From the NCBI RefSeq assembly GCF_050920415.1, contig NZ_CP169309.1: 64,000 nt of DNA, one strand, 5' to 3'. The notes below the pieces were generated by a model. It saw only the letters and a program-made list of their open reading frames with translations. It did not search any database and was not told the DNA's origin. Of this stretch, positions 5,438 through 9,460 are shown one piece after another. How positions within the stretch are numbered: position 1 is the first letter of the stretch; each line of letters opens with the position of its first letter. Source of the stretch: Escherichia coli. Lineage in GTDB: Bacteria; Pseudomonadota; Gammaproteobacteria; Enterobacterales; Enterobacteriaceae. The translations under genes were made by a program, and so were the position numbers.

Positions 5438-5739
5438 TACCCCTTACGGGGTTGTTTCATCGGCCTGAGCGGAGCCAGGCCTGACATTTGCTGGTAATCC
5501 AGACATTTCCCGGATGTCGCGTTATGGAGCGCAGGCGGCAACGGGCTTCCGTTAACGATTAAGACTGTGACGAGGAAATGAGATGATGCCGATGATTAAA
5601 TCCCCGCATGGCGAGGGAGGCTGCGTATGCGCCCCTCCTGCGACTGACTGGACTCCGCCCCCTTTGCTTCCCTTGCTAAACAGGTTTGATTTCAGGTCGA
5701 TACGACCGCAAACCTTATTACGCAGGGGAGGCAGCAATT

Positions 5740-7125
5740 ATGGCTATTAATTCACCACTGAATATTGCTGCGCAACCCGGCAAAACCCGTCTGCGAAAAT
5801 CACTGAAATTGTGGCAGGTGGTGATGATGGGTCTGGCCTATCTCACGCCGATGACTGTGTTCGATACCTTTGGCATTGTTTCCGGCATTAGCGACGGTCA
5901 CGTTCCGGCGTCCTATTTGCTGGCGCTGGCGGGTGTGCTGTTTACCGCGATCAGCTACGGCAAACTGGTTCGCCAGTTTCCGGAGGCCGGTTCGGCCTAT
6001 ACCTACGCGCAAAAGTCGATTAACCCGCACGTCGGATTTATGGTCGGCTGGTCATCGCTGCTGGATTATCTCTTTTTGCCGATGATCAACGTTTTGTTGG
6101 CGAAAATCTATCTCTCCGCCCTCTTCCCGGAAGTGCCGCCGTGGGTGTGGGTGGTAACCTTCGTCGCCATTTTAACCGCCGCGAATCTGAAGAGTGTCAA
6201 CCTGGTCGCTAACTTCAATACCCTGTTTGTGCTGGTGCAGATTTCCATCATGTTGGTGTTTATCTTCCTGGTGGTTCAGGGGCTGCATAAAGGAGAAGGC
6301 GTTGGCACCGTCTGGTCACTTCAGCCGTTTATCAGCGAGAACGCGCACCTGATCCCGATTATTACCGGGGCGACGATTGTCTGTTTCTCGTTCCTCGGTT
6401 TCGATGCGGTGACCACGCTTTCGGAAGAGACGCCGGACGCCGCACGCGTGATCCCGAAAGCCATCTTCCTGACGGCGGTATACGGCGGCGTTATCTTTAT
6501 CGCGGCGTCGTTCTTTATGCAGCTGTTCTTCCCGGATATCAGCCGCTTTAAAGATCCGGACGCCGCACTGCCGGAAATCGCACTGTACGTTGGCGGCAAG
6601 TTGTTCCAGTCGATTTTCCTCTGCACGACGTTTGTGAACACGTTAGCGTCTGGCCTGGCGTCACATGCCAGCGTGTCGCGTCTGCTGTATGTGATGGGGC
6701 GCGACAATGTGTTTCCGGAACGCGTGTTTGGCTATGTGCATCCGAAATGGCGGACTCCGGCACTGAATGTCATTATGGTCGGGATTGTCGCGTTGTCAGC
6801 GCTGTTCTTTGATTTAGTCACCGCGACAGCATTGATTAACTTCGGTGCTCTGGTGGCGTTTACCTTTGTGAATCTGTCGGTGTTTAATCATTTCTGGCGG
6901 CGTAAAGGAATGAATAAAAGCTGGAAGGAGCACTTCCACTATTTGCTGATGCCGCTGGTTGGCGCGCTGACGGTGGGTGTGCTGTGGGTTAACCTCGAGT
7001 CAACGTCACTGACACTCGGTCTGGTATGGGCTTCATTAGGCGGCGCATATTTGTGGTATCTGATCCGCCGCTATCGCAAAGTGCCGTTGTATGATGGTGA
7101 CAGAACGCCGGTGAGCGAAACGTAA
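5740..7125 (+). CDS. puuP: putrescine importer (APC-family permease)
   Basis: ORF trimmed to [14 protein letters not shown]..., 461 aa; polytopic membrane protein. Confidence 0.9.
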
Positions 7126-7133
7126 TAGTCGGA

Positions 7134-7173
7134 TGCGCGGCGCATTATCCTGCCTGAGGGTAATGCGCCGCGC
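7134..7173 (+). terminator. GC-rich hairpin just downstream of puuP
   Basis: Inverted repeat gcgcggcgcatta...taatgcgccgcgc 9 nt after the puuP stop; no strong T-tract. Confidence 0.4.
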
Positions 7174-7258: not shown

Positions 7259-7504
7259 ATGAACCACGATATCCCGCTAAAATATTTTGATATTGCCGAT
7301 GAGTACGCGACCGAATGCGCAGAGCCTGTCGCAGACGCTGAACGCACACCGCTGGCCCACTACTTCCAGTTACTGCTCACCCGTTTGATGAACAATGAAG
7401 AGATCAGCGAAGAAGCCCAACATGAAATGGCTGCTGAAGCGGGGATTAATCCCGTACGCATTGATGAGATCGCAGAGTTTTTGAATCAATGGGGTAATGA
7501 GTAA
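7259..7504 (+). CDS. ymjA: small uncharacterised protein YmjA (81 aa)
   Basis: 81-aa [22 protein letters not shown]... in the expected position between puuP and sapA. Confidence 0.8.
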
Positions 7505-7537
7505 TTATTTCATTGCAGACGCTCGGTCAGTATCGTT

Positions 7538-7568
7538 GCCCGGATAAAGCGTTCACGCCGCATCCGGC
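7538..7568. repeat. REP (repetitive extragenic palindrome) element
   Basis: gcccggataaagcgttcacgccgcatccggc matches the REP consensus family (ccggataa...gcatccgg). Confidence 0.55.
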
Positions 7569-7816
7569 TAAAAATGACACGCACTGCAGCGTGCTTTAAT
7601 GGGTTTCTCACGATCGTACCGCTCTGCTCCTCGCTAAGTTGTTCTGTGAGTTATAGTTATAGAGAAATCACGGGTACGAATGTTGAACAGATGGCGACGT
7701 CACCTGTTCAACGACCAACCACACGGCCCTCATTACGACCCCTGAACACAAACGGTAATGGCAAATGTCATTAAATATTAGTAAGATAGCCTCTTTACAT
7801 AAAATCCCTTAATATT

Positions 7817-9460
7817 ATGCGCCAGGTATTATCGTCTCTTTTGGTGATTGCTGGACTTGTGAGTGGTCAGGCAATCGCCGCGCCTGAATCCCCCCCGCAT
7901 GCTGATATCCGCGACAGCGGTTTTGTCTATTGCGTCAGCGGGCAAGTCAACACCTTTAACCCATCCAAAGCGAGCAGTGGGTTAATTGTCGATACCCTTG
8001 CCGCCCAGTTTTATGATCGACTCCTGGATGTCGATCCCTATACCTATCGCCTGATGCCGGAACTTGCCGAAAGCTGGGAAGTGCTCGACAACGGCGCGAC
8101 CTATCGCTTCCACCTGCGTCGCGATGTTCCGTTTCAAAAAACCGACTGGTTTACTCCCACTCGTAAAATGAATGCCGACGATGTGGTGTTTACCTTCCAG
8201 CGAATTTTTGACCGCAACAACCCGTGGCATAACGTCAACGGCAGCAACTTCCCCTACTTCGACAGCCTGCAATTTGCCGATAACGTGAAAAGCGTCCGCA
8301 AACTGGATAATCATACCGTTGAGTTCCGACTCGCCCAGCCGGATGCTTCTTTTTTGTGGCACCTGGCGACCCATTATGCATCGGTCATGTCGGCAGAATA
8401 TGCCGGGAAGTTAGAGAAAGAAGATCGCCAGGAGCAACTCGACCGTCAACCGGTTGGCACTGGACCGTATCAGTTGTCGGAATACCGCGCCGGGCAATTT
8501 ATTCGCCTACAACGTCATGATGACTTCTGGCGCGGCAAACCGTTAATGCCGCAGGTGGTGGTGGATTTAGGCTCCGGCGGTACCGGACGTCTGTCGAAAC
8601 TCCTGACCGGGGAGTGCGACGTTCTGGCCTGGCCTGCTGCCAGCCAGCTATCTATTTTGCGTGACGACCCACGCTTGCGTTTAACGCTGCGTCCAGGGAT
8701 GAATGTCGCCTATCTGGCATTTAACACCGCTAAACCGCCGCTAAATAATCCCGCCGTGCGCCATGCGCTGGCTCTGGCGATCAATAACCAACGCCTGATG
8801 CAATCCATCTATTATGGTACGGCTGAAACGGCGGCCTCTATTTTACCGCGCGCCTCGTGGGCCTATGACAACGAGGCTAAAATTACTGAATACAATCCGG
8901 CGAAATCGCGCGAACAGTTGAAGGCGTTAGGGCTGGAAAACTTAACTCTGAAACTTTGGGTGCCCACACGTTCGCAGGCGTGGAACCCCAGCCCACTGAA
9001 AACCGCCGAACTAATTCAGGCGGATATGGCGCAGGTTGGCGTAAAAGTGGTGATTGTGCCGGTAGAAGGTCGTTTTCAGGAGGCGCGGTTGATGGATATG
9101 AGCCATGATCTGACGTTATCCGGTTGGGCGACAGACAGTAACGATCCGGACAGTTTCTTTCGTCCGCTACTGAGCTGCGCAGCAATACATTCCCAGACCA
9201 ACCTCGCCCACTGGTGCGATCCGAAATTCGACAGCGTGTTGCGTAAGGCGCTCTCCTCGCAGCAGCTAGCGGCGCGTATTGAAGCCTATGACGAAGCGCA
9301 AAGTATTCTGGCGCAGGAATTGCCCATTTTGCCGCTGGCGTCGTCATTGCGCTTGCAAGCCTACCGTTACGATATCAAAGGGCTGGTTCTTAGCCCGTTT
9401 GGTAACGCCTCCTTTGCTGGTGTGTATCGCGAGAAACAGGATGAGGTGAAAAAACCATGA
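7817..9460 (+). CDS. sapA: periplasmic substrate-binding protein of the Sap ABC transporter
   Basis: 547-aa ORF with signal peptide, family-5 SBP-like; first gene of a 5-gene ABC operon. Confidence 0.92.

Follow-up and report, generated by a model that had tools for sequence, protein, structure and literature searches.

Quasi-palindromes are mutation hotspots as a result of template switching during replication (PMC7202029), and in Escherichia coli and its relatives template switching preferentially turns imperfect inverted repeats into perfect ones (PMC5941160). The inverted repeat at positions 7682–7712 of the window (the whole 64,000-nucleotide stretch of E. coli chromosomal DNA analyzed here) lies upstream of sapA and resembles these hotspots in its imperfect arms of about 15 nt, its short loop, and the concentration of variation within it. 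Here too, some derived alleles pair what was mismatched, one of them to give a perfect palindrome, and neighboring sites have been hit more than once. Unlike in the described hotspots, it is natural variants alone that point to a mechanism at this repeat, and several of these variants lower complementarity.

A second kind of described element to which this locus can be compared is the prophage integrase pseudogene or att remnant, of which Rac IntR-like remnants are an example. An integrase gene that is intact in Citrobacter amalonaticus occupies the identical position, its 3′ end collinear with the DNA around the repeat, and relics of the same C terminus are present 5′ of sapA in several genera. 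In E. coli, however, only about 110 nt are kept, the frame is broken, protein-level searches are negative, and both sapA promoters are aboard.

Two kinds of regulatory element are also similar in part. Stem-loops of mRNAs, such as ompA-type 5′ stems, REP stabilizers, and RNase III sites, share with the repeat a stable stem in a transcribed leader or intercistronic region with no U-tract, but the repeat is not 5′-terminal, is unconserved and single-copy, and shows no covariation, and no processing site or 3′ end has been mapped to it. Palindromic operators of dimeric repressors share its dyad symmetry near a promoter, whereas the repeat is not conserved with the promoters and its symmetry is continuous over 31 bp. 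Wherever a defining feature could be checked, the repeat has those of a quasi-palindrome hotspot and of a prophage integrase remnant, and it lacks those of an intrinsic terminator, a dispersed REP-type repeat, an Rfam family, a covarying RNA, and a conserved operator. We put at roughly 0.6 the probability that it is a lineage-specific, mutation-prone quasi-palindrome in an integrase remnant, without a dedicated function.

The repeat and its neighborhood

The repeat, GTTGAACAGATGGCGACGTCACCTGTTCAAC, lies in the 312-nt spacer between ymjA and sapA (7505–7816), which 5,421 of 5,426 complete E. coli genomes carry at 94–100% identity. In K-12 and in a 100%-identical strain, RefSeq annotates the genes around the spacer in the order puuA, ymjE, puuP, ymjA, sapA, sapB (Table 1). 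Seven of 5,425 spacer matches fall on plasmid-labeled records, and a few genomes have two copies. The original prediction had described a perfect 9-bp inverted repeat with a 13-nt spacer, about 105 bp 5′ of the sapA ATG and downstream of a REP element, and this description is accurate. The arms read GTTGAACAG-N13-CTGTTCAAC, the 3′ end of the repeat is 105 nt from the ATG, and a REP-like palindrome lies 5′ of it.

Table 1. Coordinates of the features discussed, in window positions
Feature	Position	Strand	Remarks
puuP	5686–7125	+	Window ORF coordinates
ymjA (DUF2543)	7259–7504	+	Promoter starts 7226 and 7228 also feed read-through into sapA
REP-like palindrome 3′ of ymjA	7540–7568		Sequence and repeat finder
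Short G+C-rich hairpin between REP and integrase relic	7577–7594		Terminator-like on − strand
Decayed 3′ end of lambdoid (IntR-like) prophage integrase gene	7633–7744	+	Repeat inside
P2, weak distal sapA promoter	7652–7669	+	Candidate −10 TATAGT 7652–7657 or TATAGA 7658–7663
Inverted repeat/quasi-palindrome	7682–7712		Arms 7682–7690 and 7704–7712
Conserved block GGTAATGGCAAATGTCATTAAATATTAGTAAGATAGC	7754–7790	+	Invariant in Escherichia; carries P1
P1, main proximal sapA promoter	−35 7759–7764; −10 7782–7787; start 7794	+	Candidate −35 TGGCAA and −10 TAAGAT, N17 spacing
sapA, first gene of sapABCDF	7817–9460	+	ATG at 7817

A repeat finder extends the two perfect arms to arms of 15 nt that are complementary at 13 of 15 positions around a single central base, A7697. 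How unusual such a structure is depends on which of its two descriptions is taken. First-order Markov simulations of the window, which supply all chance expectations for inverted repeats given here, yield 5.2 ± 2.3 loci whose arms pair perfectly over 9 bp or more across a spacer no longer than 20; the 64-kb window itself holds 18. With about five perfect 9-bp repeats expected per 64 kb, the bare 9-bp repeat is not itself beyond chance. Arms of 15 nt with at least 13 matches are expected only 0.77 times per window, so the extended palindrome, unlike the bare 9-bp repeat, is rare by chance.

Folded as RNA, the repeat gives one stem-loop, with −14.4 kcal/mol for the + strand and −15.4 kcal/mol for the − strand. 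The hairpin has a z score of −4.6 against shuffled sequences, none of 200 of which folds equally well. Downstream of the stem the + strand reads CGACCAACC and the − strand ATTCGTACC, neither with a U-tract, and a terminator scan found no terminator-like site at 7682–7712 on either strand. We therefore rejected the repeat as an intrinsic terminator of ymjA; a separate hairpin with a T-rich tail is present at 7577–7600. An Rfam covariance-model scan gave no match overlapping 7682–7712 even at E ≤ 10, which removes a known RNA family from consideration. The repeat is single-copy in the window with three mismatches allowed and is found at a median of one place per genome (5,421 of 5,426 E. coli genomes), and it is thus neither a dispersed repeat nor the end of a mobile element.

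The remaining hairpins in the neighborhood are of a more familiar kind. The palindrome 3′ of ymjA, which we take to resemble the REP consensus, draws from Rfam a weak, sub-threshold match to naRNA4, a REP-derived family. The short hairpin that follows is succeeded on the + strand by TTTAATGGGTTT and, to judge from these letters, may be a weak ymjA terminator. Directly 3′ of the puuP stop codon is a 12-bp perfect inverted repeat at 7136–7172, CGCGGCGCATTA-N13-TAATGCGCCGCG, which is probably the puuP terminator or a stabilizing hairpin.

Upstream regions of sapA in related genera

A comparative set of 80 loci was obtained by scanning one genome per species with the SapA N terminus. The upstream regions are of two main kinds, with about 15 of the 80 loci fitting neither. 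The first, that of Salmonella, Enterobacter, some Citrobacter, and others, has the end of pspF 93–156 nt 5′ of sapA and a spacer unrelated to that of E. coli. In Escherichia, many Citrobacter, and Klebsiella/Raoultella, sapA is preceded by the block that in E. coli carries P1, with 0–3 mismatches in Escherichia and Citrobacter and 6–8 in Klebsiella and Raoultella.

The repeat does not follow this distribution of the block. It is absent where pspF lies directly 5′ of sapA (for example, in Salmonella and Enterobacter), and it was not found in Citrobacter, Salmonella, Klebsiella, or Enterobacter; no relative outside Escherichia with an intact sap operon carries it. Palindrome scores, which are 12–15/15 for the common E. 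coli alleles, are 14/15 in Escherichia sp. E1V33, 12/15 in Escherichia sp. MOD1-EC7003, 10/15 in the L014 species, and 8/15 in E. whittamii, and they are 3–8/15 in Citrobacter. The hairpins of L014 and E. whittamii reach only −5 to −6 kcal/mol. By contrast, the sequences of P1 and P2 are invariant across Escherichia, and that of P1 is also kept in Citrobacter, whereas the repeat is degenerate or absent. The original prediction had looked to conservation across the Enterobacteriaceae for support and had named absence or variation in close relatives with an intact sap operon as evidence against it. What we found is absence outside Escherichia, degeneration in two of its species (E. whittamii and L014), and variation within E. 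coli.

An operator for a dimeric transcription factor, as the original prediction had suggested, would be expected to fare differently. Bound at such a site, the factor could be a P2 roadblock, at +19 to +49, or could act on P1 from a position centered at −97. The sequence is symmetric and lies in a promoter region, it is single-copy, and once extended it is well above chance. The conservation of both promoters where the repeat has degenerated or been lost argues against such a site, as does the fact that the repeat is a polymorphism hotspot within the species. Moreover, the symmetry covers the full 31 bp, center included, as is usual for hairpin-forming DNA but not for a pair of short half-sites. 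Class I activator sites have usual spacings, and a center at −97 lies outside them; in terms of position, a P2 roadblock is possible, and the site would be atypical for activation. Full-text literature searches that combined sapA with genomic SELEX or ChIP-exo returned no report of binding. We regard an operator as most improbable.

An integrase remnant upstream of sapA

What the repeat lies in is suggested by the loci of Citrobacter. Where the conserved block is present in that genus, the DNA aligned by MAFFT reads as the C terminus of a tyrosine integrase (..QMGHENAKMVYEVYSKWIAGMNVDQV..). A profile built from non-Escherichia relic DNA 5′ of the block has its top nhmmer match in the window at 7633–7701 (E = 8e-4). 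An independent profile built from intact IMG/VR integrase 3′ ends has its top match at 7633–7744 (E = 0.026), about 50-fold better than the next. Both matches are collinear with the integrase 3′ end, and the left arm of the repeat, GTT GAA CAG, corresponds to the integrase-tail codons V-D/E-Q of ..N-V-D/E-Q... For the integrase homology under the repeat itself these E-values are modest, and the collinearity supports it. In E. coli, decay has gone too far for tblastn and blastn, which did not reach beyond 7731–7816. A 66-aa ORF at 7574–7774 was rejected as a coding sequence; it has no Pfam match and represents the broken integrase frame.

Two strains of C. amalonaticus provide the comparison from which the origin of this DNA can be read. 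In strain S646 (L009), an intact 421-aa integrase with Arm-DNA-bind_2 and Phage_integrase Pfam domains is encoded with a DUF1233 excisionase directly 5′ of sapA (L009 1169–2500), its stop codon 66 nt before the sapA ATG. Its identity to Rac IntR is about 51%, and to Stx-phage integrases, one of which is named for the wrbA site (PPwrbA_EC3734), about 45%. Strain ku-bf3 (L008) has no prophage; pspF lies directly 5′ of sapA, and the site is empty (L008 2300–2500). The two sequences are identical from ACCTTAAAAATTATG onward, and the sequence in common with the empty site starts about 17 nt before the ATG. This convergence indicates that the attachment site overlaps the start of sapA and that, in loci with a prophage or relic, DNA 5′ of about −17 is phage-side. 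At the place equivalent to P1, L009 has the similar TGGATA-N17-TAGGAT.

By tblastn, integrase C-terminal relics (residues ~345–420) are found 5′ of sapA in Citrobacter, Enterobacter, Lelliottia, Klebsiella, and Raoultella. Our view of the prophage origin is based on the distribution of these relics and on the comparison of L009 with L008; the viral contigs used end at the integrase stop, excluding attP. The E. coli repeat alleles were not found in viral contigs. In outline, these comparisons show the 5′ edge of sapA to be a prophage attachment site, at which E. coli keeps only about 110 nt of integrase homology and the integrase-proximal att arm. Both mapped E. coli sapA promoters thus appear to be on prophage-derived DNA: the integrase tail would hold P2, and this att arm P1. 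The repeat was considered as an old phage att-arm binding site and rejected, as it lies beyond the ~50–80 nt of the integrase-proximal arm and within the former integrase coding tail.

The arrangement of the neighboring genes is also informative. In MOD1-EC7003 (L003) and the L014 species, the order is pspF-ymjA-relic-sapA, without puu genes, and the distance from the end of pspF to sapA is 572 nt in L003 and 797 nt in L014. The puuPADRCBE genes of E. coli therefore form a separate block between pspF and ymjA, and an arrival of the puu cluster with the prophage is not supported, given that these two genomes have ymjA and the relic without it. The K-12 spacer between pspF and puuE (L087 5817–5935) contains only REP-like sequences and no trace of a native sapA promoter.

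If phage-derived DNA has replaced the native pspF-sapA spacer, as present in Salmonella and Enterobacter, in this way, then E. coli and Salmonella do not have orthologous sapA control regions, and regulation of sapA need not be comparable between the two. The locus would then clearly exemplify how a decayed prophage at a 5′-end integration site can replace a promoter. This probable origin of the promoter region is more notable than the repeat, which itself matters little.

Variation within E. coli

Alleles of the repeat were counted as exact matches of a 48-nt query in 5,422 E. coli records. The allele of K-12 and the window (1712 records) is 13/15 palindromic, an allele with T7700C (1663 records) is 14/15, and an allele with T7700C and C7703T, which includes that of O157:H7 (743 records), is a perfect 15+1+15 palindrome at 15/15. 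A B2-type allele with A7689T, T7700C, and C7712T (1045 records, ~19%) has a broken arm and scores 12/15. Rarer alleles include that of N96, at 10/15, and that of L092, which combines T7700 with T7703; all four 7700/7703 haplotypes are present at these two sites, 3 bp apart. The perfect 9-bp arms are kept in about 76% of E. coli records, and in those the hairpin folds at −14 to −22 kcal/mol.

Variation is not spread evenly over the spacer, in which no stretch varies more than the repeat. Among 13 E. coli sequences, 8 of 31 sites are polymorphic in the repeat versus 10 of 188 in the rest of 7598–7816 (Fisher p = 0.001), a concentration of about five-fold. Most of this variation is in the right arm; the left arm is almost invariant. 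Some changes favor pairing: C7703T leads to the perfect 15/15 palindrome, and another gain in pairing comes from G7708T on the E. coli stem. C7700T and C7712T convert G-C to G-U and keep pairing in the sense-strand RNA.

This pattern bears on the simplest view, that the repeat is an ordinary inverted repeat that arose by coincidence and has no special mutational or functional property. Such a view is in keeping with the number of perfect 9-bp repeats (spacer ≤20) that a stretch of 64 kb should hold, about five, and with a location in a decaying remnant. It sits poorly with the expectation of only ~0.8 per window for the extended palindrome (13–15 of 15), with the five-fold concentration of polymorphism, and with derived alleles that raise complementarity, in some cases up to the perfect 15+1+15 form. 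We therefore judge coincidence very unlikely.

A mutation-prone quasi-palindrome in an integrase remnant would have come about as follows. A lambdoid prophage would have integrated at the 5′ edge of sapA and then decayed to the 3′ end of its integrase gene and an att arm, which left the DNA around the repeat without a coding function. The partial self-complementarity of the integrase tail would have become more perfect in the E. coli lineage, and the variant pattern suggests that template switching during replication copies one arm from the other. A template switch in an imperfect repeat would explain the concentration of variation there, the changes that raise complementarity, and the four 7700/7703 haplotypes. 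We infer this origin from natural variants, among which the polarity of some substitutions is ambiguous. A 7-nt hairpin-templated insertion, indicated by one nhmmer alignment, was rejected because Citrobacter Res13 aligns gap-free through GCGAAGTCACAT. Understood in this way, the repeat is a neat natural example of an inverted repeat drifting toward perfection in neutral DNA.

Among the nine distinct Escherichia sequences, a set with low power for such comparisons, there are no compensatory changes: in none of the 14 pairs have both partners changed, and seven of these pairs are lost in at least one lineage. For the same nine sequences, and with the same low power, the covariation score of the repeat is 0.060, not above that of shuffled sequences. 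With no conservation, no compensatory change, and polymorphism in E. coli, the function put forward in the original prediction, as an operator or a regulatory hairpin, is left without support.

Transcription through the repeat

Whether a hairpin could act in RNA depends on where transcription of sapA begins. Published starts were placed in the window with the K-12 annotation and a gap-free alignment, by which the window position is 1364927 minus the NC_000913.3 coordinate. By SMRT-Cappable-seq, sapA units start at NC_000913.3 1357133 (7794), a second sapA unit starts at 1357263 (7664), and ymjA-sapA(-sapB) units start at 1357699 and 1357701 (7228 and 7226), from the ymjA promoter (PMC6131387). 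Kim et al. (2012) reported a single sapA start at NC_000913.2 1355282 (7669), with 2 reads and a 148-nt leader (PMC3415461). Romero et al. (2014) reported a 5′ end at 1355288 (7663), of class II, TAP-enriched and not a leading edge (PMC4681348). The Cappable-seq 2016 and Adams 2021 supplements have no entry for the sapA locus. A genomic SELEX study by Shimada gives a predicted sapA promoter, ATGACA-15-TTTAAT, at 7574–7600 (PMC3946193), which we set aside because no mapped start lies there in the three searchable start-site sets.

The hexamers that we assign to P1 and P2 (Table 1) are our own reading of the sequence and fit the mapped starts. The P2 5′ ends at 7663, 7664, and 7669 lie inside the integrase relic. 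Start-site data, which the original prediction had proposed as a check, divide on the repeat: the weak P2 ends are 5′ of it, and the main start at 7794 is 3′ of it. The repeat thus occupies −112 to −82 relative to P1, outside the P1 transcript, and +19 to +49 relative to P2, inside the P2 leader, and it is also inside the ymjA read-through RNA. The suggestion of a 5′-UTR hairpin in the sap operon accordingly holds for P2 and read-through transcripts and fails for the main one; with the main start 3′ of the repeat, a leader hairpin can be present only in minor transcripts. It would form in a minor fraction of sapA mRNAs, and nothing points to selection for it. The listing of ymjA-sapA units in PMC6131387 also implies that the REP element and the small hairpin after ymjA terminate incompletely.

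These minor transcripts would be the setting for an E. coli-specific functional RNA hairpin that acts post-transcriptionally, both in the long leader of sapA and between ymjA and sapA. Its possible roles are those of a site for RNase III or other processing that splits ymjA from sapA, a barrier to 3′-exonucleases by which the RNA 5′ of it is stabilized, or a stabilizer of the P2 leader. That the repeat is transcribed is clear from the P2 starts mapped at 7663–7669 and from the existence of ymjA-sapA units. Its stem is stable (z = −4.6) and persists in the fold of the 153-nt P2 leader, although that fold as a whole is unremarkable (z = −1.3). Two observations count against the reading without function: about 76% of records have perfect 9-bp arms and a strong hairpin transcribed from P2 and the ymjA promoter, and the retention of G-U pairing at C7700T and C7712T is also expected under weak constraint at the RNA level. 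Other Escherichia, however, share P2 and the leader sequence and yet reach only −5 to −6 kcal/mol, and the B2 allele, in 19% of records, has extra mismatches. The absence of covariation and the pairs broken in some lineage likewise weigh against a functional stem.

The position and abundance of the transcripts provide further arguments against this hairpin. Classical protective stems, as in ompA-type leaders, sit at the 5′ terminus. The stem of the repeat starts 18 nt from the 5′ end, too far for a stem of that type. No U-tract follows it, and the Term-seq supplement that was searched has no 3′ end or entry for sapA or ymjA. P2 is weak: one map has 2 reads for it, and a second puts it in class II. 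Taken together, these points make a functional hairpin unlikely, although it merits consideration. A more specific form of the proposal is that a young, E. coli-specific regulatory hairpin was born from dead integrase coding DNA and exapted for processing or stabilizing read-through and long-leader transcripts, with alleles from 12/15 to 15/15 tuning the SapBCDF putrescine exporter by phylogroup; this we consider quite unlikely. Most likely, the quasi-palindrome has no dedicated regulatory role, and any effect on how stable the minor transcripts are or how they are processed would be small and would depend on the allele. Its annotation as a sap operator or riboregulator is unwarranted on present evidence.

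Other features of the two promoters vary or persist in their own right. The −10 region of P2 (7651–7663) is a tandem TTATAG TTATAG, to which strain YP3 (L088) adds a third unit through a 6-nt insertion, TTATAA. In B2 strains L085, L090, and L091, G7662A changes TATAGA to TATAAA, a better −10. On the basis of these hexamers, the strength of P2 probably differs between lineages. Overlapping the −35 of P1 is a near-palindrome, AATGGCAAATGTCATT, at 7757–7772, which is 12/16 self-complementary and which the fold of the P2 leader includes as a small hairpin. Its sequence is unchanged throughout Escherichia and in nearly all relic-carrying Citrobacter loci. This near-palindrome is a far stronger candidate than the repeat at 7682–7712, whether for a genuine operator or for a one-time Int/IHF arm site.
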